A stretch of 64,000 bases of DNA from an uncultured Gammaproteobacteria bacterium (GCA_964568925.1 CAZMSJ010000001.1:1115-65114), one strand, 5' to 3'; positions 9,914-48,196 are shown, numbered from the stretch's first letter. Numbers and translations: made by a program. Notes: generated by a model from the sequence alone, not told the origin.

Positions 9914-12370
9914 TTATCTCCAACTTGGAAGCCAGTAATACGATTCGTTTAACCAGAGAGGAACAGGGAGACCAGTTAATCGTGGGAAGAAATACAAGAA
10001 CACAACGCCAGCAATAATTAAGAATGGAAGTATGAGTTTTGGTGAACGAGATAGACAATAGGCAAGACTAATACAAAGGAACGGAACAGCTGGAAAATAA
10101 TGATACAAAAACATAATACGAGGAGAGAATGCCCATGGCATAAACAGACCTGCATAGGACGCAACTACGAGTGCCGCGGACTTACTTTTGTCCTTCAATG
10201 CATACCAGGACGTAAGAAAGATTGACGCCAATCCTCCCCAAAAGATAATCGGATTCCCCATCGCATAAATATTTGAAATAACACCATTATGTTCACCACT
10301 GGTGTAGAGCCAAATTGGTCGACCTAATACTGGCCAACTCCACCACGGAGAACTGAATGGATGAGTTGCAACAAGTCCGGTGTGATACCACCAAATTTGT
10401 TTCTGCATTCCCCAAAAAATATCGAACGTATGTCCCGAGGTAAACATAAAGAGATATGAACCAATGTAGATGGCAACGGGAATAATAAGGAACGAGAGAT
10501 ATGAAATTTTTATTCTTTTTTGTTTCAGAATAAAGGTGACAACAAGGATTGGTAGCAACCACAACGTCGTCCATTTTGCAGAAGCTGCTAAACCTAATGC
10601 GATTGAAGCAAACACAATTTTATTTTTCAAAAATAAAATAATTGTAAGAAGCAGGAAGAAGACGAGATAGATATCATTCATTCCAATACGACTTAAGACT
10701 AGGGCCAAACCATCGAGACTAAAGAGAAATGCAGCAAGTAACGCAACCTTTTCTTTCTTAAATAATTCCTTTGTTAGGGCATAGACCAAATACACACTCC
10801 CCGTTCCAAAAAGTGCAGCAGGCAAACGCCATCCAAAACTTGTTTCCCCTACCAAAACCATCGACATAACCATCGCAAGTTTTGCAAACGGTGGATGGGT
10901 CCATTCATATGCAAACCCTTCAGGACTTTCATTCCACCATTCCCACACCTTTATATTTCCATGCAACATTTGTCGAGCTGTGAAAGCATGGTATACCTCA
11001 TCAAAGTATTCATGTTCAGGAGATACCAGAGCAAATAAACGGGTAGACAACGCCCACACAAGAATCACTACAAGGAGAATTTTTGCCGTCTTGTTTGAAA
11101 TATCTTTCGCAAAAACTTTTGGCTCAGGGCTTGAAAGGAATGCTTTAACGTAGCCTACCAAACCGCCGACACGACTGGCTTTGATAAAGCCAATAAAAGA
11201 CTTTGTTTTTTCTTCTTGCAAGACAATCACAAGAGACATGATATTAAGCAAAATAAAAAAGAAAATGAGAAGCGGTGAATAGCTCTCTTTAAAATTCTCT
11301 GTAATCCAGATAAAGGCATAGTTCATATTTGCGATGTATACAAAAGACAACAGCACATAGGAGATTAAAAGCTCTGTGGAAATTGCAGCCAGTGGAGCAA
11401 GTGCCACTATTGCTGGAAGTAAATGTCTCTCATGCATACGAGTGAAGAATAAAAAGTTTGCGAGAAACAGGAGGACAAGCATTTTTATTGATGACAATTG
11501 TCGATCTCCCTTTTGTTTACGAAATTGTATGTAGCCAACAAGAGACACAAGACCAAACAGCAAGTAGCCCAAGTATTTATTGGTAAACAGGCTTGCTCCT
11601 TCTGGTTTCCAAAATCCAAAGAGCCCCCAAAAATTAAATGCGTTTACACTTCCATATGGATATTGGTTTAGGGTTACACCAAGTCGTTCAAAGATAAACG
11701 TGACGATGTTTTGTCCATTTGAAAATGGGAAAAACAAAAGGAGGAGAACCCCCGTTGCAACGAGGACAAAAACAATCTTTTGTTTAAAACTTTTTTGTAA
11801 AAAGAGGGGAAGAAGAACCAAACCAGTTAACGCCGCTTGTGGTTTTATTGCGGAACCAATTGAAAGAAAGATTGCTGAGAGAATTACACTTGATTCAAAA
11901 CTCACGACACTTGCTAAGGAAAACAGAACGGTCAAAATATCAACTTGTCCCCACAGAGTAGAGTTAGCAATCGTTGCTGGGTTAAACCATACAAGAACAG
12001 CACCAAACAATGCTTTGTCTGGATACTTTTTCTTCAAGATATAGTAGGTCGTTAAACCAGCAAATATGTCTGCCGTAATTGCTGGCAATTTATATAAAAC
12101 TACCGTTGGTATTCCGATTGACTCGATGCCAGACAGAAATGACAAGACATATAAATATCCAGGCAAGTAATCACTCCAACTGGTGTAAAACATTGAAAAG
12201 CCATTCGTGGTAAGTGAATGTGCCCATGCAATAAACGTATTTTGATCTAGTAGCAGGGTCCCAAACTGTGCAAGTATAATGCGAAGCATGAAGGCACTAA
12301 TGGCGAGCAAAAAGACCCGGAGGATAGTAGGTCCGCTTGTTGTTTTTTTCTTCTTTTTCATCATATTCAA
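9914..12370 (-). CDS. Large polytopic membrane glycosyltransferase, GT39/GT83 (PMT/ArnT)-like, apparently two fused membrane modules
   Basis: 818 aa with >20 predicted TM segments. YxxxA/DE-rich loops typical of lipid-linked sugar transferases. 5' end overlaps the divergent gene 12279..13478, so the exact start is uncertain. Confidence 0.45.
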   Translation of the reverse strand: MNMMKKKKKTTSGPTILRVFLLAISAFMLRIILAQFGTLLLDQNTFIAWAHSLTTNGFSMFYTSWSDYLPGYLYVLSFLSGIESIGIPTVVLYKLPAITADIFAGLTTYYILKKKYPDKALFGAVLVWFNPATIANSTLWGQVDILTVLFSLASVVSFESSVILSAIFLSIGSAIKPQAALTGLVLLPLFLQKSFKQKIVFVLVATGVLLLLFFPFSNGQNIVTFIFERLGVTLNQYPYGSVNAFNFWGLFGFWKPEGASLFTNKYLGYLLFGLVSLVGYIQFRKQKGDRQLSSIKMLVLLFLANFLFFTRMHERHLLPAIVALAPLAAISTELLISYVLLSFVYIANMNYAFIWITENFKESYSPLLIFFFILLNIMSLVIVLQEEKTKSFIGFIKASRVGGLVGYVKAFLSSPEPKVFAKDISNKTAKILLVVILVWALSTRLFALVSPEHEYFDEVYHAFTARQMLHGNIKVWEWWNESPEGFAYEWTHPPFAKLAMVMSMVLVGETSFGWRLPAALFGTGSVYLVYALTKELFKKEKVALLAAFLFSLDGLALVLSRIGMNDIYLVFFLLLTIILFLKNKIVFASIALGLAASAKWTTLWLLPILVVTFILKQKRIKISYLSFLIIPVAIYIGSYLFMFTSGHTFDIFWGMQKQIWWYHTGLVATHPFSSPWWSWPVLGRPIWLYTSGEHNGVISNIYAMGNPIIFWGGLASIFLTSWYALKDKSKSAALVVASYAGLFMPWAFSPRIMFLYHYFPAVPFLCISLAYCLSRSPKLILPFLIIAGVVFLYFFPRLTGLPVPLWLNESYYWLPSWR

Positions 12371-38020: not shown

Positions 38021-39649
38021 TTAGTAGTCCATTCCACCCATATTTGGGTTTGCGGCTTGTGCCTTTTCAGGCTGAGGGATTTCAGCGACAAGAGCTTCTG
38101 TTGTTAAGACCATCATGGCAACTGATGCAGCATTTTGAAGTGCTGAACGAGTTACCTTCAATGGATCAAGAAGACCAAAGGCAAGCATTGAGCCAAATTC
38201 ATTGGTCAGTACGTTATAACCGAAATCCGTCTCTTTTGATTCCTCAACTTTTCGCAAAATGTATCCGTCATCTTCTCCTGCATTTTTAACAAGCATTCGA
38301 ACAGGATTTTCGAGAGCTTCGTAAACGATATCGATACCAACTTGTTCATCACGAACTTTACTGGTTACCTTGTGTAATACTTTTCGTGCCTTGAGAAGTG
38401 CTACTCCACCACCAGGCAAGACACCTTCTTCAATTGCAGCTTTAGTTGCACCAACGGCATCCTTTACTCGTTCTTTCTTATCATTTAATTCAACTTCAGT
38501 TGCAGCACCAACACTGATGACTGCTACCCCACCAGAGAGCTTTGCAAGTCTTTCTTCTAATTTTTCTCGATCAAAATCACTGGTTGTGTCTTCGATTTGT
38601 CGCTTAATCAATTTAATTTTAGAACTAATGGTGTTTTTGTCTCCCTTTCCACCAATAATTCTTGCAGAATCTTTCCCTGCCCACACCTTGTCAGCACGTC
38701 CAAGATCTTCAATTTCAACTGACTCAAAAGTGCGTCCTGTGTCATCAGAAATAACAGTTCCGCCCGTCAAATCGGCAATATCAGACAAGAGGTCTTTTCG
38801 TCTGTCACCAAAGCCTGGGGCCTTAATAGCCAATACATTAAACGCACCACGAAGTTTGTTTAAGACAAGAGTGGTGAGTGCTTCACCTTCGATGTCATCA
38901 GCGATGATAACGAGGGTTTTACTTACCTTCACAAATTTCTCAAGGAATGGAAGAAGATCTTGTACTGAAGCAATCTTTTTATCAGTCAAGAGAATGTATG
39001 CATTTTCAATTTCTGCTTCCATTCTTTCAGGATTTGTTACAAAGTAAGAAGACATATATCCTCGATCAAATTCCATACCTTCTTTATATTCAATTTCAAT
39101 TTCAAGTCCTTTACCTTCTTCAACGGTTACCACTCCATCACGACCAACTTGCTTTAAGGCTTCTGCAATTTTCTTTCCAATTGCTTCGTCACCAGCTGAG
39201 ACCATAGCTACCTGCTCGATTTCTGCTTCAGACTTAATTGGCTTTGCCATCGTCTTAAGTTCTGCAACAACTGCAGCAACAGCTTTTTCCATTCCTTTTT
39301 TAATAATCATTGGGTTAGCACCAGCTGTTACGTTTCTCATACCAGCGACACTCATGGTTGAAGCGAGGAGCGTTGATGTCGTTGTTCCGTCACCGGCTGC
39401 ATCGTTTGTTTTTGAAGAAGCTTCTTTTACAATTTGGGCACCCATGTTTTCAAATGGATCAGCAAGTTCAATTTCTTTTGCAACAGAAACACCATCATGA
39501 ATAACTGCTGGTGCTCCCCACTTTTTCTCAATAGCAACGTTACGTCCTTTTGGTCCAAGGGTTGTAACAACTGCCTTACTTACTGCTGCTATTCCATTCA
39601 AGAGTGCCTTTCGTGCGTCATCTCCGTATTTAATTTGTTTTGCTGCCAT
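38021..39649 (-). CDS. groL: Chaperonin GroEL (Cpn60)
   Basis: MAAKQIKYGDDAR...AAVEEGVLPGGGVALL...GGMDY. Confidence 0.9.
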   Translation of the reverse strand: MAAKQIKYGDDARKALLNGIAAVSKAVVTTLGPKGRNVAIEKKWGAPAVIHDGVSVAKEIELADPFENMGAQIVKEASSKTNDAAGDGTTTSTLLASTMSVAGMRNVTAGANPMIIKKGMEKAVAAVVAELKTMAKPIKSEAEIEQVAMVSAGDEAIGKKIAEALKQVGRDGVVTVEEGKGLEIEIEYKEGMEFDRGYMSSYFVTNPERMEAEIENAYILLTDKKIASVQDLLPFLEKFVKVSKTLVIIADDIEGEALTTLVLNKLRGAFNVLAIKAPGFGDRRKDLLSDIADLTGGTVISDDTGRTFESVEIEDLGRADKVWAGKDSARIIGGKGDKNTISSKIKLIKRQIEDTTSDFDREKLEERLAKLSGGVAVISVGAATEVELNDKKERVKDAVGATKAAIEEGVLPGGGVALLKARKVLHKVTSKVRDEQVGIDIVYEALENPVRMLVKNAGEDDGYILRKVEESKETDFGYNVLTNEFGSMLAFGLLDPLKVTRSALQNAASVAMMVLTTEALVAEIPQPEKAQAANPNMGGMDY

Positions 39650-39660
39650 AGGTATAAAAA

Positions 39661-39960
39661 TTATTTAACAATTGCCAATATATCATCAAACTTTACAAAC
39701 AAATAGTCATGTCCATCGATTTTAACTTCGTTTCCACCCCATTTTTTATAAATTACAACATCATCTACTTTCACAGGAGACTTTTTAACGGTACTGTTAT
39801 CAGTTGTTTCATCTGCACCAACAGCGAGTACTGTTCCTTTTTGTGGTTTGTCTGCTGACTTCTCTGGAAGATATATTCCTGAAGCTGTTTTTGTTTCAGA
39901 TTCTACTTGCTCAATAATCAAGTGACCTGGTGTTGGAGTTAGGTTTAATTTCTTTGCCAT
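39661..39960 (-). CDS. groS: Co-chaperonin GroES (Cpn10)
   Basis: MAKKLNLTPTPGHLIIEQVESETKTASGIYLPE... Confidence 0.85.
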   Translation of the reverse strand: MAKKLNLTPTPGHLIIEQVESETKTASGIYLPEKSADKPQKGTVLAVGADETTDNSTVKKSPVKVDDVVIYKKWGGNEVKIDGHDYLFVKFDDILAIVK

Positions 39961-40675: not shown

Positions 40676-41251
40676 CTAGAGCGTTGCCTGTAGCACACCC
40701 ATAAACTTTTCAATCAATACCTTTGCCTCCGACGCAAACATCATCGTTGTGTTTGCATCACAGACAAACCCGTTTCCGTCACTGTCATAAGACCATGCCC
40801 ATTCAGGCACAGGCATATTGACAATCCGTTCCGGCAATTCTACTTCGATATTGTTACTGCCCAGTCCTTTAAAAAACCGGGGTTCAATTCTTCCTGATGA
40901 AGAAACAGCTCCTGAAAGGGACGGCTGGTAGACTAGCTTACCGTCTACAATTTTCTCGTACCAAATGACCTTGGCGGGTTTGTCAAAAATCTGACCTGCG
41001 TAGCGAGGAAAAGGTTTGCGCTCTTCCATAAACAGGCCGCGAGAAACGACTATTTCTTCAGTCTCTGGCCCCCATTTGGATAAAACCGCATATAATAGTC
41101 CACTTCGCATCTGGAAATGCGGGTGTTTACCAACATCTGTAATGAAGACCAAATCGGCGGCTTTCGCAGCACGCTGAACCTCTTCATATGTCAACAACTG
41201 TTCTGCAGGACGGTTCTCTTTTATGAAATCATTCAATTGTTTGCTGTACAT
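40676..41251 (-). CDS. Island protein, member of a local paralog family (191 aa)
   Basis: The C-terminal ~105 aa aligns with the 157-aa protein at 43878..44351 (LPERIVNMPVPEWAWSYDSDGNGFVCDANTTMMFASEAKVLIEKF vs FPEPVVTLPIPRWVKVWVHGDYGACDAGAESIQMFKSEAERLATEF). Confidence 0.45.
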   Translation of the reverse strand: MYSKQLNDFIKENRPAEQLLTYEEVQRAAKAADLVFITDVGKHPHFQMRSGLLYAVLSKWGPETEEIVVSRGLFMEERKPFPRYAGQIFDKPAKVIWYEKIVDGKLVYQPSLSGAVSSSGRIEPRFFKGLGSNNIEVELPERIVNMPVPEWAWSYDSDGNGFVCDANTTMMFASEAKVLIEKFMGVLQATL

Positions 41252-41382
41252 CTTGCTCTCCTGTTAGTTGGGTTAACTATTAATAAAATATAGATTACTT
41301 TTGATACTTAAAATATTTTTTTTAAATACGAACGGAAAATAAATATATGGTGACGGAAGTAGTTCCGCCACCATTTTTTTGA

Positions 41383-41874
41383 TTAGCTCGGAAGCCAAAA
41401 ACCTTCGCGACGAGCTTTCCGAACAAACGAAATAGCTAAGAACACATCGAGTGAGCGGCTGCTATCCACCCACTCACCTTTAAAGAGGTTCTCTAGTTTG
41501 AGGGTGAAATCGTCTCCCCCCTTATCAGATAGCGTCAACCGATATTCGGTCACGCCAATTGATTGGGGGAAACCCGCAACTTTGAAACTTACAGACTCAC
41601 CGGCCTGCAGTTTCATCGCAGGAATTACGGTGACAAGTGCTTCATCAAACGAAGCAAAGGCTTCAACTTTCCACCAATTGGTACTAATGGCTAGAAGATT
41701 CCCTTCCTCGTCCTCCAAGGCACGATACACGATAAAGTCAGGTGACGGACAGACGTTAAGTTCTTTTGCCTCCTCCAAAGCATCATTTAGCGAATTTGCT
41801 TTCAAATTCACTCGAACCTCATTGTCACCTAGTTCGATCCAGTTCCCAAAGATAACTCCAACATAGGACGGCAT
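41383..41874 (-). CDS. Island protein (163 aa), N-terminus resembles N-terminus of the 157-aa paralog
   Basis: MPSYVGVIFGNW vs MPKPAFVSLGNL, and ...KVAGFPQ...KGG vs VVAGFQVKENKGG. Weak similarity. RBS aaggagaagaatc identical to that of gene 42384..42623. Confidence 0.4.
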   Translation of the reverse strand: MPSYVGVIFGNWIELGDNEVRVNLKANSLNDALEEAKELNVCPSPDFIVYRALEDEEGNLLAISTNWWKVEAFASFDEALVTVIPAMKLQAGESVSFKVAGFPQSIGVTEYRLTLSDKGGDDFTLKLENLFKGEWVDSSRSLDVFLAISFVRKARREGFWLPS

Positions 41875-42010
41875 GATTCTTCTCCTTATTAATCAAAGCT
41901 CATGTAGCTTATAAATTGAAATGCCTCACACAAAAGATATGTTTATATCTTCTGGGTGAGGCACTTTTACTCTCACAACATTCAAACAAGATTTAAATGC
42001 TGAATTGAGT

Positions 42011-42029
42011 CCCCCACATGAAGTGGGGG
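42011..42029 (-). terminator. Conserved intra-operon hairpin (copy A)
   Basis: cccccac-atgaa-gtggggg with conserved flanks gaattgagt...tatttt.agacg shared with the copy at 44466. Confidence 0.45.
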
Positions 42030-42052
42030 CTATTTTAGACGAAGAGATCAGT

Positions 42053-42352
42053 CTACTTCCAACCTAAATCCCAGCCATACCCATTTGCTGAGTATCTAGG
42101 TTTGCGGACTGTGCCGTCCGAAAGGACAAAAATCGGAGCGTTTAAAGTAGAGTCCCACTCTACTTTCATTACTTCAAGCTCCGCAGGCTTCGTTTGCGCA
42201 CAAACCACCATTTGAACAGACTTGATTGCGGCCCAATCCTCCGCAGTTGGACCTGCGGTCGGATGCTGGTCAGCCGAAAGTGTTTCGGCAGCTTTAAAGG
42301 CAAATTCCAAAACCTTTAAAAGCGCATTATTATCAACAGTTATCTGGCCCAT
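42053..42352 (-). CDS. Island small protein (99 aa)
   Basis: ORF between the leader gene and the conserved hairpin. No family recognised. Confidence 0.4.
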   Translation of the reverse strand: MGQITVDNNALLKVLEFAFKAAETLSADQHPTAGPTAEDWAAIKSVQMVVCAQTKPAELEVMKVEWDSTLNAPIFVLSDGTVRKPRYSANGYGWDLGWK

Positions 42353-42383
42353 GATATCTCCTTATCCTATATGTAAAATTAAA

Positions 42384-42623
42384 CTAATTATCCAGCCATT
42401 CAAAAAATCTCATAGCGGGGTAAATGGCAAGAATCCCCCCAAAAAGTCCGATAAAATTGAGATTCATCGGTAAAAACATTACCGCAAATCCAATACCCAA
42501 CAAAATTGGGGATCCGATCGCGATAATGGAAATAAGAAATGCACGGGCAATCTCCCCTTCAGGGTGCCCAGTAGGTACAACTGGGAAAAACTTTTTCCAA
42601 ATTTGGCGAATTTTAATACTCAT
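42384..42623 (-). CDS. Island small membrane protein (79 aa), first gene after conserved leader A
   Basis: Two TM segments. Start preceded by aaggagaagaatc and the 14-bp palindrome. Confidence 0.4.
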   Translation of the reverse strand: MSIKIRQIWKKFFPVVPTGHPEGEIARAFLISIIAIGSPILLGIGFAVMFLPMNLNFIGLFGGILAIYPAMRFFEWLDN

Positions 42624-42643
42624 GATTCTTCTCCTTGTGAGTT

Positions 42644-42657
42644 GGGCTCATGTGCCC
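42644..42657 (-). promoter_or_regulatory. Conserved leader/operator motif A: near-palindrome GGGCACATGAGCCC ~10 nt upstream of RBS
   Basis: 12/14 self-complementary. The identical 14-mer is at 44908-44921 in the same position relative to another operon start. Confidence 0.45.
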
Positions 42658-42723
42658 ATATGGATTTAGATTTCTTTTGATATTTAAAAGATTTTTAAAT
42701 ATGAAAGAAAAGTAAAAATTGTA

Positions 42724-42745
42724 GGGGAAGGTTGGCTCCTTCCCC
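42724..42745 (-). terminator. Terminator after the 305-aa gene
   Basis: ggggaagg-ttggct-ccttcccc. On the minus strand it is followed by acaattttt. Confidence 0.5.
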
Positions 42746-42758
42746 CAAAAACAATGAA

Positions 42759-43676
42759 CTACTTAATCAGGTGTTTCGAAACAATCTCGACAACCTGCTC
42801 GATTTTCAGGGTGCTATTTATACCCTGAGGGCTGCCACCAATCGTCGGCGAACCACCCCAACCGGCTTCCAATGCCGAAAGCTCAGTAAAAGCTGCCTTT
42901 AGGTCCAGGTACCCAGCTTCATACTGGCTTACCGTGAACTTTGAGTGCTTAGGCCCACCTTGGAATGAAAACTCACGATTCAAGGCAACGACGACCGGCG
43001 CTAACGAATATCCCACCATCGTCGCTGCGCGGTGAGTCGAAACGACTACCGCAATCTTTCCTTCAGTGCGATGAGTGATCGCACCACTTTCAAGAGCGGC
43101 GATCATGTCGCTGCGCTCTTTATCAACCTGTGCGCGGTATGCGCAAGGTTCCTCGCCAGTCAAGAGCCATTTTTCCATCCAGGCGACACGATCTGCAATT
43201 GCGACTTTGAAGTCTGCAACCGCTGCGGCAATCGCCGCCAGTTCGCGTGTATCTGACGCGCTGGCGTTCTTCTCAGGCCACGGGTTTTCCGTAGTAGGCA
43301 GTGGCTTCACGCCTGCCCAATGGCCACGAGCAAACTTATCGGCAGCTGCTACTCGGAGAATCCGAGCGACGGCTGCGGCAGAAAACTGCCCATTGCGGGA
43401 ACGAATTTCCAGAAGGGCCATTGCTCCAATAGAATCCAGGTCGGCACGAACTGTGACCAGGGTCGATCCCTCAACCGGCAACTCTACTGTCAGGGCTGCT
43501 TCAATTGCAGCCTGATCTGCGTTTTGTCCGCTGTGCTGGGGGTCAAGGTTCCCCAAACAGCACTGCGCAGCCAAGGCAGGAATCGTTACCTCAACACCAA
43601 AGGTGTTGGGACCAACTAGCAAGGCATTTGCCTCAGTACCAACAGGACGGGGGTCAAGGATTCCAAATTTAAACAT
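42759..43676 (-). CDS. GC-rich uncharacterised protein (305 aa), Ala/Gly-rich, no TM
   Basis: Intact ORF. GC ~55% in sampled 60-mers against ~35% in the flanks. Motifs CCLGNLDPQH, VRADLDSIGAMALL, GWGGSP. No confident family assignment. Confidence 0.5.
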   Translation of the reverse strand: MFKFGILDPRPVGTEANALLVGPNTFGVEVTIPALAAQCCLGNLDPQHSGQNADQAAIEAALTVELPVEGSTLVTVRADLDSIGAMALLEIRSRNGQFSAAAVARILRVAAADKFARGHWAGVKPLPTTENPWPEKNASASDTRELAAIAAAVADFKVAIADRVAWMEKWLLTGEEPCAYRAQVDKERSDMIAALESGAITHRTEGKIAVVVSTHRAATMVGYSLAPVVVALNREFSFQGGPKHSKFTVSQYEAGYLDLKAAFTELSALEAGWGGSPTIGGSPQGINSTLKIEQVVEIVSKHLIK

Positions 43677-43877
43677 GATTTCTCCACTGCTCTTGGGGTT
43701 GAACTTTTGTCAACACATCCTTTTGGCAGCGCGGATAGGCGCCATCGATTGCGCCCTCCAAGCTGCCATCAACAGAGAAAGAACGGTTTGGAGAGAAAAA
43801 TGTTTCTATCAATCTTGAATTTCTTCAAAACTGATTTGAAACAGGGGAAGATAATGAACCTTCCCCTAATTTGTCTA

Positions 43878-44351
43878 CTAAATGAGTTTTTTAAGCTCAT
43901 TCGTGAACTCAGTTGCGAGACGCTCGGCCTCTGACTTAAACATTTGGATAGATTCGGCACCTGCATCGCAGGCACCGTAATCCCCGTGTACCCAAACTTT
44001 CACCCAACGAGGTATCGGTAGGGTTACGACAGGTTCTGGGAATGAAACTTCCACCGCAGGGTACCCTGCCGCTTCCAAGACTCCAGGGATAATGCCTGGG
44101 GCGTTATGGTAAAACCCCAATGTAGGGGTATAACGAACGACGCCCAACTGAGCATCGATTTCTGCATTCCACGAAAAAGTAATACCCGAGTCAACCTGCC
44201 AAGTCTCACCCCAAGTGGCGGTGATAGACAACCCTCCTTTATTTTCTTTAACCTGGAACCCCGCCACTACAGCAGCAATTTTCAAATTACCAAGAGAGAC
44301 AAATGCAGGCTTCGGCATGTTGTTCGAGACGAAAGATGATAGTGTAGACAT
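43878..44351 (-). CDS. Island protein, paralog family member (157 aa)
   Basis: See 40676..41251. The true start may be MPKP at 44318. Confidence 0.45.
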   Translation of the reverse strand: MSTLSSFVSNNMPKPAFVSLGNLKIAAVVAGFQVKENKGGLSITATWGETWQVDSGITFSWNAEIDAQLGVVRYTPTLGFYHNAPGIIPGVLEAAGYPAVEVSFPEPVVTLPIPRWVKVWVHGDYGACDAGAESIQMFKSEAERLATEFTNELKKLI

Positions 44352-44465
44352 TTAAGACCCCTTATTACTTGATTAAATACAAAATTTCAAAACAGATTGT
44401 GTTTACAATATTTATATTTAATGCTCTCACAAACTTGAAACTCGCATTTCAAATTTGAATTGAGT

Positions 44466-44484
44466 CCCCCACACAAGGTGGGGG
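44466..44484 (-). terminator. Conserved intra-operon hairpin (copy B)
   Basis: cccccac-acaag-gtggggg then atttttct on the plus strand. Flanks are conserved with copy A. Confidence 0.45.
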
Positions 44485-44518
44485 ATTTTTCTAGACGGAG
44501 CCTCAGATATAAGCCCTT

Positions 44519-44887
44519 TTATTGAGAAATATCAGGAGGAAGTGGATATCCTCCGTGCTCCTCCATTTTGCTATCAGGAGACGCCGCAATAGCAGCGTCA
44601 ATTCGTTCACGCGCATTTAAGCTGAGGGAGAGCTCACGCAGGTTCATCTTCTTGATGTATCTGCGGTCAACGAGAATATCATTGCGAAGAGCATCATCTG
44701 CCCAAACAATGATACCCGGCTCATCACTTGGCGTGCTTCCTTCAAGCATTGCATACACCAAAATTAACGCTGGCCGGCGCCCACCGACGCACTTTTTCTC
44801 AAGATCAAAAACTCGAACACCGCTTTCAGAGATCTGAACCTTGTAACGGCCAACCACAACTACCTGCTCGTTTGAATTCTGTGCCAT
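44519..44887 (-). CDS. Island small protein (122 aa), first gene after conserved leader B
   Basis: ORF. Start preceded by aaggagaaaaatc and the 14-bp palindrome. Confidence 0.4.
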   Translation of the reverse strand: MAQNSNEQVVVVGRYKVQISESGVRVFDLEKKCVGGRRPALILVYAMLEGSTPSDEPGIIVWADDALRNDILVDRRYIKKMNLRELSLSLNARERIDAAIAASPDSKMEEHGGYPLPPDISQ

Positions 44888-44907
44888 GATTTTTCTCCTT
44901 AATGAGT

Positions 44908-44921
44908 GGGCTCATGTGCCC
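44908..44921 (-). promoter_or_regulatory. Conserved leader/operator motif B (GGGCACATGAGCCC)
   Basis: Identical to the 14-mer at 42644. A putative -10 TATACT lies 7 nt upstream on the minus strand. Confidence 0.45.
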
Positions 44922-45359: not shown

Positions 45360-46148
45360 ATGATTGATGAAACGCTCAAAAAGATTGGATTATCAAACGA
45401 AGAAACTGAAGTGTATCTCTCTCTTCTAAACTCCGGGACCGCCAATGCCTCACAAATTGCTAAGCAGACGTCTGTAAAAAGAACAAATGTCTACAATATT
45501 TGCGATAGTCTTATTACGAAAGGACTTGTAACAAAGAAGGCTCTTGCTCGAGGCATGGCATTTACTCCACTATCTCCAGATCACCTTTCGCCACTAGCAA
45601 TTCAACTTGAACAACGAATACAAAATGCAATGACAAGCTTGGAAAATATTCTACCTTCACTTAAAGAGCAATATAAATTAATTGATGAAAGACCAATCAT
45701 TACTGTCTATGAAGGAATTGAAGGTTTAAAGAAAATTTACAAAAACATATTGGAGGAAAAAGATGATATTCTTCTTCTCCGCTCATACTATGATGATAAA
45801 AGAATAGATCTTGATGCAATTGTAATGGCGCAAATTAAAAATCAAGTGAAAAGCGGTATACACGTTCGAACAATAACTCCATTGGAGAATGCAACAAAGG
45901 AAGTTTTTTTTAAGCACGATACCCCTAATTTAGTAAAACGACATATCATTCATTCAACACAATTTGAACTTCCCTCACAAATTATTGTCTATAAAAATAA
46001 AGTAGCAATGATTTCACTGAAAAAAGATATTGTAGCTACTCTCATTGATAACAAAGACATTAGTGACACATTTCGAATGCTCTTTGATTTTATGTGGGAG
46101 AAAACAGAGAAAGAACATGAAGAGATTGTGGCTGAATGGAAAGATTAA
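45360..46148 (+). CDS. TrmB-family transcriptional regulator
   Basis: N-terminal wHTH LGLSNEETEVYLSLLNSGTANASQIAKQTSVKRTNVYNICDSLITKGLV is the TrmB signature. C-terminal effector domain. Confidence 0.6.
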   Translation: MIDETLKKIGLSNEETEVYLSLLNSGTANASQIAKQTSVKRTNVYNICDSLITKGLVTKKALARGMAFTPLSPDHLSPLAIQLEQRIQNAMTSLENILPSLKEQYKLIDERPIITVYEGIEGLKKIYKNILEEKDDILLLRSYYDDKRIDLDAIVMAQIKNQVKSGIHVRTITPLENATKEVFFKHDTPNLVKRHIIHSTQFELPSQIIVYKNKVAMISLKKDIVATLIDNKDISDTFRMLFDFMWEKTEKEHEEIVAEWKD

Positions 46149-48196
46149 AGTGAAGTTTTCCATCCAAGGGCCTTCGGTATTTTTTGTGTAAATCGCTTAA
46201 ACACTTCTTTATTTGACAACCCTTTTTCAAATAAGCCTTGCGTATGGTGTGATAGTCCGAGCTGTTGAAGTTTGTTAACAAAATCAGAGCCCCGAGTTCC
46301 AATATCAAGTGACAAGCCGTATTCATCACAATCAAGTCGTAGATTCACTTTCTTTCCTTCAGCTGACGCAGTGACCCCTAATCGTGATTGACCAGTTTCA
46401 TACTCCTCATCAACTGCCTCTGGTCGAACCGTAAAGGTAACACGAGATGAATCAGAAAAAACATACCGTGCTGAAACACTTGCGTGTTTCTCATCTAATT
46501 TAATTCCAGGATCTTCATGAAATGAAACAACGCCTTCTCCAGAAAAGCCGTTTGAAGCTGAATCAAGTGCTTTTGTGTATAAAGACATCGTGTCGAGTGC
46601 TTCAGTTACTCCTTCTTGCCCAAATTCTGTTGCAAGTAAAATAAAATGTTGTGACCTATATGCAAACGATTGTTTCATTCTCTCCAAAATTATCCGGTCG
46701 GTGTTTGACATGAGTTTTGTTGATTGTAATTTTTCAGTAAGTGTATCTACAAACCGATTTGAAGCATTTCGAATCTTTGTGTACTGCTCAATAACATTTT
46801 TTTGAATATCAGGTGACTGATTTGTTAAATGTAAAACACGGATATCAAGCTCTCCATTTAGATAGGCATCTGCAAAAAGTTGAGCTGAGTCTGGTGCAGT
46901 TTCTAATAGTTCACGTGCTCTGGAATCACCTTTTTTATCTAAGTCCTGAACAAGTAGCATCGCACTTATCTGCTCTGCTGGACTCAAATCAGTAAAGGAA
47001 GATCGCCCTTCTGAACTTAAGCTCGTGCGAAAATCCATAAGTGTTTGAACATGGTCACCAATCATAATCCTATCTTTTCTGGCTCCGCCATGATCCACAA
47101 AAAATGAACCTAATTGTGAAGGGTTAATGACATCAAATGAACCTTGTGGAACAAGCGTAAATGAACGATCTTCTCCTTTGTCATAGGTTATATGGCAATT
47201 TCTCATATTTTCGCTACTTACATGAGCACGAAAAGCGCAACGAACTTCACCATTTACTGATACTGCATATTGATCCTGATAAATTTTAACGACATCTCCA
47301 TCTTTATATTGTGATCCAATAGAGAATCTACGATTCCCAATATTAATTCTCCCATCTTTTGAAACTTTCCGTACCTCAACATCACGATTATGCTCTGAAA
47401 AGTCTTCGACCGAAAGCAATTCATTGCTTTCCCAAAATGTACCTTTCTCTTCCATAAACTTCGTGGGATTATCCCAATTTACATTGTCTGTACCACCTCC
47501 ACGTATTCCTTGACGTACAAACCACGCACCGGATAGCCGCTGTCTGCCTGCCTCAGGATTTCCTGGAATTGCATCCACAAACAAAACTCCACCCTCATTA
47601 CGTCTTCCATTTGCTCTCGCATATACCTCATATGGAATGGCTATATCAAGAAGCGAGGTTTTAGCTGCAAAATCAGACTCAACTGTGGGGTGTCTCCTAT
47701 CCCAATCCATAGGTCGTTCCCACATGCGAATATAGTGATCATTTTTATGCTTAGCAAATGTTTCTGGGGAAAACCCTTCCTTTTCGCTTGGAACAAAAAA
47801 CAGATTTCTCTTCTCAGAGGGTATTGATCCATCAAGGGCTTTAACCGTAACGGGTATCCCTTTAAAGGTCCAATATAATATTTCTGAAGGAGAAAGTGCT
47901 GTCTCTGTATAGTTTATAAGCTCTTGTGCTGAAGTCTTTAGATATGTTTTACGCTTTACGAATGAACCTTCTTTGTTTGTAAAGCCGCGAGTCAGGTAAT
48001 CAAGGTGATTAATAACAACAGAGTCAATATTATTTTGGTCATCTCTTTTAACTTCCAAAAAGCCACGTTGTTGAAAATTGGAGAGCGTTACCTCTTGTAA
48101 TCGCTGTAGTTCGGGATCTTCTGGCCGAGGTATAATTTCTGTTTCAAGAGGCTTCCTTATTTCTGTTTCTATTCTTGGTATTTCGTTATTTTCCAT
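46145..48196 (-). CDS. Large cytoplasmic protein of unknown function (683 aa), last gene of SBP-NTase operon
   Basis: Intact ORF, no TM. 11-nt gap to the upstream gene. No recognisable catalytic motif. Confidence 0.5.
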   Translation of the reverse strand: MENNEIPRIETEIRKPLETEIIPRPEDPELQRLQEVTLSNFQQRGFLEVKRDDQNNIDSVVINHLDYLTRGFTNKEGSFVKRKTYLKTSAQELINYTETALSPSEILYWTFKGIPVTVKALDGSIPSEKRNLFFVPSEKEGFSPETFAKHKNDHYIRMWERPMDWDRRHPTVESDFAAKTSLLDIAIPYEVYARANGRRNEGGVLFVDAIPGNPEAGRQRLSGAWFVRQGIRGGGTDNVNWDNPTKFMEEKGTFWESNELLSVEDFSEHNRDVEVRKVSKDGRINIGNRRFSIGSQYKDGDVVKIYQDQYAVSVNGEVRCAFRAHVSSENMRNCHITYDKGEDRSFTLVPQGSFDVINPSQLGSFFVDHGGARKDRIMIGDHVQTLMDFRTSLSSEGRSSFTDLSPAEQISAMLLVQDLDKKGDSRARELLETAPDSAQLFADAYLNGELDIRVLHLTNQSPDIQKNVIEQYTKIRNASNRFVDTLTEKLQSTKLMSNTDRIILERMKQSFAYRSQHFILLATEFGQEGVTEALDTMSLYTKALDSASNGFSGEGVVSFHEDPGIKLDEKHASVSARYVFSDSSRVTFTVRPEAVDEEYETGQSRLGVTASAEGKKVNLRLDCDEYGLSLDIGTRGSDFVNKLQQLGLSHHTQGLFEKGLSNKEVFKRFTQKIPKALGWKTSL

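Follow-up and report, generated by a model that had tools for sequence, protein, structure and literature searches.

Between groES/groEL and a gene for a TrmB-like regulator, a 64,000-nt stretch of bacterial DNA (CAZMSJ010000001.1:1115-65114; the whole stretch is hereafter called the window) carries an island of eight minus-strand open reading frames (ORFs), which encode proteins of 122, 157, 305, 79, 99, 163, 191 and 124 amino acids (aa). Here we analyse the 191-aa and 157-aa proteins. It is firmly established that they represent two paralogs, not three, of a real and undescribed protein family, that both are under selection, and that the family occupies a variable slot linked to a TrmB-like regulator. 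A first-pass annotation of this DNA had counted the 163-aa ORF as a probable third member; all three ORFs are indeed present on the minus strand, with the positions and lengths it gave. In public data the island proteins have their nearest relatives among proteins annotated as Candidatus Woesebacteria, and the window looks like part of a genome of the candidate phyla radiation (CPR). The features of the island and its borders are:

38021-39649: groEL, bounding the island
39661-39960: groES, bounding the island
40676-41251, minus strand: 191-aa protein, full-length family member (ORF; matched to the 157-aa protein by BLASTP and hhalign, and by the family hidden Markov model, HMM)
41383-41874, minus strand: 163-aa ORF, a separate island gene and not a family member (BLASTP, hhalign and HMM all negative)
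41970-42035, minus strand: second copy of the terminator and inverted repeat, upstream of the 163-aa gene (repeat families D1 and D8, 80% and 83% identical to 44424-44490)
42759-43676, minus strand: 305-aa gene, the next one downstream of the 157-aa gene; it adjoins the family only occasionally and is not a member of it (homologue in locus L015)
43878-44351, minus strand: 157-aa protein, full-length family member in its minimal form (ORF; family HMM; AlphaFold model)
44424-44490, minus strand: terminator-like hairpin and inverted repeat upstream of the 157-aa gene (repeat families D1 and D8)
44519-44887, minus strand: 122-aa gene, optional partner immediately upstream of the 157-aa gene (homologue in locus L011)
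45360-46148, plus strand: TrmB-like winged-helix regulator of 262 aa, divergent from the island (Pfam TrmB, E 7e-15)

Two full-length paralogs and an unrelated neighbour

The 191-aa and 157-aa proteins are true paralogs, local to the island and similar well beyond chance. BLASTP aligned their C-terminal parts, with 29 of 89 positions identical (33%, E 6e-10); the likeness had first been noticed in the C-terminal ~105 residues. The homology is not confined to the C-terminus but runs full length: hhalign of the two orthologue sets (probability 96.9%, E 1.4e-10) joined residues 3-154 of the 157-aa protein to residues 5-188 of the 191-aa protein, an alignment that spans both whole proteins and leaves two insertions in the latter. 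These insertions fall between predicted strands 33-37 and 40-44 and between predicted strands 50-53 and 57-66, that is, in beta-hairpin loops. The N-terminus of the 191-aa protein (LNDFIKENRP) aligns with that of the 157-aa protein (LSSFVSNNMP), whose M1 is the right start, because residues 2-13 match the family motif S-x-K-L-x-x-F-x-x-x-N-x-P. When an HMM of 50 family members was run against the six-frame translation of the 64-kb window, these two proteins were the only matches (E 2e-43 for the 157-aa and 2e-44 for the 191-aa protein). Both carry N-x-P, LPE-x-x-V-x-x-P-x-P-x-W and F-x-SEA, and the anchors PE, PxPxW and FxSEA that had been noticed in this pair are family-wide, being made up of near-invariant positions (P105, E106, P112, W116, S140 and E141). 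Directly past the stop codon of the 191-aa gene lies a terminator-like hairpin (40667-40643).

The 163-aa protein is unrelated to both paralogs. BLASTP against either of them gave E 1.9 or worse, hhalign against both gave probabilities of 0.3% and 0.9%, and the family HMM did not match it in the six-frame translation of the whole window. The idea that the family is split over two genes on this side of the island fails as well, the 191-aa protein being full-length: in the exhaustive search described below, profile positions 1-156 match its residues 1-190. An N-terminal echo between the 163-aa protein and residues 12-23 of the 157-aa protein (MPSYVGVIFGNW / MPKPAFVSLGNL) had been read as a further sign of kinship. 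Its starting point falls within the N-terminal helix and NxP motif that the family conserves, and it is therefore a coincidence; the true counterpart of this N-terminal motif is the N-terminus of the 191-aa protein. The 163-aa ORF is a real gene, 93% identical in the syntenic Woesebacteria locus L001, and it is predicted to be a co-regulated neighbour of the family genes rather than a member of the family. What links it to the 157-aa gene is common upstream regulatory DNA, not protein homology.

A conserved Cys-Asp-Ala had been suggested as part of a catalytic or ligand pocket. This tripeptide lies in the most variable loop, which is also the least confidently modelled, and it is not conserved: locus L009 encodes a 196-aa orthologue with Val in place of the Cys (Val-Asp-Ala), and the column of this Cys is unconserved in the alignment of 50 family sequences. 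That an enzyme-like family of three (191, 157 and 163 aa) with a Cys-Asp-Ala/Trp pocket and a split gene lies in the island is, taken as a whole, highly improbable. The genuine likeness between the C-terminal parts of the two paralogs, the near-invariant Trp of PxPxW and the DNA element found upstream of both the 157-aa and 163-aa genes would fit it, but an unrelated 163-aa protein, a full-length 191-aa protein and a pocket Cys replaced in a close orthologue do not.

Rates of change were measured against the syntenic Woesebacteria loci L001/L002. Genes flanking the island showed a synonymous divergence (dS) of 0.12-0.17 and a ratio of non-synonymous to synonymous divergence (dN/dS) of 0.01-0.07. 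Within the island, dS and dN/dS were 0.13 and 0.03 for the 191-aa gene (99% aa identity to its L001 orthologue), 0.42 and 0.28 for the 157-aa gene, 0.66 and 0.12 for the 305-aa gene, 0.31 and 0.17 for the 79-aa gene, and 0.22 and 0.20 for the 163-aa gene. These dN/dS values therefore indicate that all island genes are protein-coding and constrained, and both family genes are real, each with a terminator of its own, and under purifying selection. The 124-aa gene has a dS of 0.02, and L001 carries unrelated 126-aa and 171-aa genes in place of the 122-aa gene. Centrally, the island consists of a recombination tract with a more distant allele.

The family and its predicted scaffold

Word-indexed searches found only near-identical Woesebacteria proteins, and an exhaustive profile search was needed to see the family. 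A five-sequence profile, run with HMMER against 1.84 billion representatives, yielded 110 proteins at E up to 1e-3 and 24 at E up to 1e-10, which amounts to ~110 clusters at 50% identity. Most members are 150-210 aa long, and the distribution is patchy, nearly all clusters having a single member and each occurring on one to three contigs. Three giant matches (P0030, P0082 and P0089) were discarded as spurious, being Ig/PKD/CARDB or low-complexity repeat proteins. The family motif reads S-x-K-L-x-x-F...N-x-P...V-x-LPE-x-VV-x-LP-x-P-x-W...F-x-SEA. Eight positions (P13, G31, P105, E106, P112, W116, S140 and E141 in the numbering of the 157-aa protein) are conserved in at least 90% of the sequences of a 50-sequence alignment (A6), in which no stretch is conserved enough for locus scans.

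No Pfam-like signature had been recognised in these proteins by eye, and library searches agreed. Pfam and PHROGs gave nothing consistent for 50 family members, and a search of the island proteins against Pfam, PHROGs, NCBIfam and PADLOC left both paralogs and their neighbours without a family match above threshold, TrmB apart. The anti-phage defence models of PADLOC-DB matched neither paralog nor the neighbouring island genes, Pfam found DUF1874 (PF08960) neither in the window proteins nor in the 50 family members, and the family profile returned only noise from PDB sequences. A match to ZapC_N (PF21083) was rejected: it concerned the 191-aa protein only and reached 15.7 bits (E 0.018), with a gathering cut-off of 27 bits. 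The family is rare, undescribed and genuinely new.

A confident AlphaFold2 model of the 157-aa protein, built with the 50-sequence alignment, reached a pLDDT of 91.9 and a pTM of 0.81. Its predicted elements are helix 4-11, strand 16-18, helix 20-29, five strands within 33-77, helix 88-94, strands 100-103 and 108-110, a loop at 111-135, strand 136-138 and helix 139-156; the loop at 111-135 is long, variable and the least confident part of the model. The conserved positions map to the N-terminal motif, to the strand and loop of V-x-LPE-x-VV-x-LP-x-P-x-W, and to F-x-SEA, which caps the last helix. The family consists of soluble alpha/beta proteins. Foldseek searches of both models against PDB, and of BFVD, gave nothing better than E 0.1.

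The regulator slot, its DNA elements and its company

Family members recur beside the same kind of regulator. In the window and in loci L097, L013 and L098 a member lies 1.0-1.7 kb downstream of a divergent TrmB-like regulator, and in the Nomurabacteria locus L015 it lies 5.4 kb from one; the regulators of these four loci are 27-38% identical to that of the window. The divergent TrmB-like regulator is a fixed landmark of a variable slot in at least five CPR lineages. Long contexts that have no TrmB are also found (L014, L100 and L010). The most informative comparison is with L097 (SRR25018343, 94 kb), where the genes on either side of the slot are syntenic with those of the window: identities are 56% for a solute-binding protein (SBP), 43% for a 266-aa protein, 37% for TrmB, 61% for groES, 79% for groEL, 39% for a 242-aa protein and 45% for an M23 peptidase. 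In the slot between TrmB and groES, the only cargo that it has in common with the window is the family member itself (33%). Adjacency to groESL is seen in the window's close relatives and in L097, and is absent in L013, L098 and L015. On the far side of TrmB lie SBP_bac_1 in L097, homologous to a 557-aa gene of the window, and CBM_4_9 in L013.

It is conceivable, if on balance unlikely, that the family is an ordinary host protein specific to CPR bacteria, which belongs to a TrmB regulon for carbohydrates or a stress response and takes no part in conflict, with paralogs that arose by simple lineage-specific duplication. The divergent pair of TrmB and family member in five lineages, the sugar-binding SBP or CBM genes beyond TrmB, the groES-groEL genes that directly follow the slot in the window and L097, and the strong purifying selection on the 191-aa copy all agree with such a role. 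It is harder to reconcile with a family so rare and patchy (~110 clusters among 1.8 billion representatives), with one copy borne by a phage and one fused to a ring nuclease (see below), with the loss of groESL adjacency in L013 and L098, and with the replacement of the cargo around the member between close relatives.

The TrmB-like gene of the window also converges with a large minus-strand gene (46145-48196) and has a few bases in common with it. L097, L013 and L098 show this convergent, overlapping arrangement as well. The large proteins are 683, 613, 741 and 598 aa long, and those of the three other loci gave no BLAST matches to the 683-aa protein of the window.

The DNA upstream of the 157-aa gene contains a conserved element (44424-44490), which consists of a hairpin, CCCCCAC...GTGGGGG, followed by an inverted repeat, CTCAATTC...TTGTGAGAG. 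A pattern search of the window found only this copy and the one at 41970-42035, and in both the inverted repeat begins with CTCAAT and ends with TGAGAG. Between the window, L001 and L009 the element upstream of 157-type genes is near-invariant, despite protein identities of only 76-81%, and its RNA fold z-score is -4.3. In L011 and L012 the regions upstream of the family members keep this architecture and its pairing, with other stem sequences. We consider the element a candidate operator or 5' untranslated region (UTR) element.

Other non-coding blocks recur in the island too. The 163-, 79- and 122-aa genes have a common ribosome-binding and start region, AAGGAGAA(G/A)AATCATG (41872-41887, 42621-42657 and 44885-44921), and the 79-aa and 122-aa genes have ~20 nt more in common further upstream. 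The AT-rich region upstream of the 191-aa gene has a duplicate upstream of the 79-aa gene, with 82-88% identity (41288-41346 versus 42664-42719). The island's intergenic DNA forms a mosaic in which regulatory blocks are reused. The island region holds 21 terminator-like hairpins, compared with 5.4 expected, several of them directly after stop codons; an Rfam scan of the island gave no match.

Multiple copies per locus are the rule, with two in the window, two or three in L009, two in L011 and two in tandem in L013. A side feature of L013 is that the first 40 codons of its 260-aa member (10001-10783) are repeated with 85% identity ~1.4 kb downstream (11457-11774). In L011, a homologue of the 122-aa protein (35% identity, E 1e-13) is encoded directly upstream of the 153-aa member, and HEPN/MNT and PIN modules lie near the member of L100. 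Such loci bring to mind an immunity (antitoxin-like) array of a polymorphic toxin or toxin-antitoxin (TA) locus, in which each paralog would counter a different toxin. Two or three diverged paralogs per locus among small unrelated genes, a hypervariable loop on a conserved scaffold, the retention of the 122-aa/157-aa pair in L011, the TA modules around the L100 member, and best fold matches that are HicA-like, though not significant, would all suit it. We nevertheless hold it to be improbable: no member has a recognisable toxin domain beside it, secretion-system context is absent, the fold matches reach only E ~0.5, and each gene has a terminator of its own in place of the tight bicistronic layout of TA pairs.

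One family member, P0053, is carried by a 116-kb contig (L010, SRR31656000) on which all genes lie on one strand, the GC skew is ~+0.2 throughout, and PHROG matches include a tRNA-His guanylyltransferase, an RNA ligase and others. This contig is very probably a large phage. Its family member adjoins a T4 Rnl2-type RNA ligase, and the contig, rich in RNA-repair functions, also encodes Thg1, two TnpB/OrfB_IS605 (Cas12f1-like_TNB) proteins, DNA methyltransferases and a Ro60/TROVE protein. Four other members (P0009, P0063, P0065 and P0090) have C-terminal Cys4 zinc-ribbon-like tails. In the 276-aa P0105, a complete family domain is followed by a C-terminal STIV_B116-like/DUF1874 domain (30.9 bits, cut-off 26); the protein contains GHEST and YLLNSFSAQML, which we take to be the DUF1874 signatures of SIRV1 gp29. 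DUF1874/STIV_B116 is the AcrIII-1/Crn2 ring nuclease of cyclic tetra-adenylate (cA4), with a conserved catalytic His (10.1101/778746; PMC12409355).

With a member among early-type small genes on a phage-like contig and another fused to an AcrIII-1/Crn2 domain, one may ask whether these small, fast-diverging, multi-copy proteins are anti-defence proteins of phages or mobile elements. They would resemble anti-CRISPR (Acr) proteins, acting for instance against type III CRISPR cyclic-oligoadenylate signalling, and the adjacent helix-turn-helix (HTH) regulator would be a repressor of the anti-CRISPR-associated (Aca) type. This is unlikely in our view, as the TrmB slot is chromosomally syntenic across distant CPR genomes, the island of the window has no mobile-element hallmarks, GenBank phages, PHROGs and BFVD gave no matches, and the regulator, with 262 aa and divergent transcription, is unlike typical Aca proteins, which are small and encoded in the same operon.

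The 305-aa gene of the island belongs to another family, widespread and uncharacterised, whose tie to the first is loose. Independent recurrence is seen in the Nomurabacteria metagenome-assembled genome (MAG) of L015, where a 62%-identical homologue adjoins a 224-aa family member. A scan found 305-aa homologues in 145 metagenome loci, and a scan of viral_contigs found none. Co-occurrence of the two, raised in the first-pass annotation, is not a rule: none of 80 other 305-aa loci that were fetched contains a family member, so the association is only occasional, and most family loci have no 305-aa gene.

The 305-aa family has invariant polar residues (E29, C39, D45, Q47, H48, R77, D79, D81 and D113) and a tail, GWGGSPxIxGSPQG; it had no match in Pfam or among PDB sequences. 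In the fetched metagenome loci, a recurrent neighbour of the 305-aa homologues is a TrmB-like regulator homologous to that of the window (17 BLAST matches; a neighbour cluster of 18 loci). A ~130-aa Csx3-like protein is encoded nearby in eight loci (Pfam Cas_csx3, E 6e-4, just below the cut-off), and Cas_NE0113 lies immediately downstream of the 305-aa homologue in six (E 7e-41). This company suggests a tie of the 305-aa family to cyclic-oligoadenylate signalling. Csx3-like proteins are absent from the loci of the 191-aa/157-aa family.

A DHH assignment was also considered for the 305-aa protein and is not supported. The resemblance is at motif level only (VRADLDSIGA and GGSPTIGGS), Pfam found neither DHH nor DHHA1, and the 34-sequence profile found no DHH protein in PDB. 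A different 305-aa protein, directly after the family member in L014 (7844-8761), shows weak DHH features (Pfam DHH E 0.0012; HGDLDG and VDHH); the two are not demonstrably homologous (hhalign probability 0.3%).

These observations could be drawn together differently, into a new module of cyclic-oligoadenylate or second-messenger conflict between CPR bacteria and phages. The family would then be a messenger-binding, ring-nuclease-partner or anti-type-III-CRISPR domain, controlled by the TrmB-like regulator through the inverted repeat, with the 305-aa protein as a second component. So specific a scheme strikes us as quite unlikely.

A tentative function and known systems

We propose, tentatively and with low confidence, that the family is a TrmB-controlled, non-enzymatic accessory binding module in conflict between hosts and mobile elements or in nucleotide signalling. 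Its genes would be direct targets of the TrmB-like regulator, and the terminator and inverted repeat upstream of the 157-type genes would serve as the control site. The hypervariable loop between P-x-P-x-W and F-x-SEA, held out by the conserved scaffold, would recognise a target, and the role of the family may lie in host-mobile-element conflict or in control by nucleotide second messengers. The features that recall conflict systems are the copy borne by a phage, the fusion to a ring nuclease, the zinc-ribbon tails, the many TA modules near one member, the multi-copy arrays, the recombination tract and, elsewhere, the Cas_NE0113 and Csx3-like company of the 305-aa family.

Several points weigh against this proposal. 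No biochemical or structural similarity connects the family to a protein of known function, and the functional part therefore comes from context only. Because SBP_bac_1 (L097) and CBM_4_9 (L013) lie beyond TrmB, a metabolic regulon is equally possible. The position beside TrmB has been kept despite divergence (79% identity in groEL, 37% in TrmB), which suggests a vertically inherited host gene rather than mobile cargo. Only one protein, from a contig of just 1 kb, has the ring-nuclease fusion, two members searched by tblastn against GenBank phages matched nothing, and PHROGs contain no family member. Neither an integrase nor a tRNA flanks the island, the only tRNA lying ~6 kb away. It is because the features of conflict systems have to be weighed against the stable position at TrmB and the sugar genes that we put forward the binding-module reading only at low confidence.

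Among known systems, anti-CRISPR/Aca operons are likewise short, fast-evolving and sometimes multi-copy, stand beside an HTH regulator, and have a parallel here in the copy on a phage-like contig. They differ in that the regulator here is a divergent, 262-aa protein of the TrmB type, in a syntenic chromosomal slot. AcrIII-1/Crn2 proteins (DUF1874, PF08960) are likewise small and are encoded by viruses, plasmids and some cellular loci, and their domain is the one fused in P0105; the family domain itself, however, has no sequence or Foldseek similarity to DUF1874, and the window proteins do not contain that domain.

In immunity-protein arrays of polymorphic toxin systems, several diverged paralogs per locus form a variable region, and a conserved scaffold bears a variable surface. 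The family likewise places several diverged paralogs in a variable region, but it lacks a toxin next door, a secretion signal and a secretion apparatus, and matches none of the described immunity families. HicA-like and dsRBD-like proteins (PDB 1whz and phage 'HicA-like toxin' models) gave the top local Foldseek matches, over 35-89 columns with probabilities of 0.66-0.95. With E values of 0.5-1, a query-normalised TM score of ~0.2, a match to a fragment only and no sequence similarity, these do not amount to a common fold.

Families of unknown function are common in CPR genomes, and the present family is like them in occurring mainly in CPR contexts (Woesebacteria, Nomurabacteria and CPR-like MAGs) and in being unannotated. 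Among so many such families, a genuine undescribed one with testable handles is of moderate interest. It differs from other CPR-specific families in its repeated linkage to a TrmB-like regulator and in its phage-borne member.

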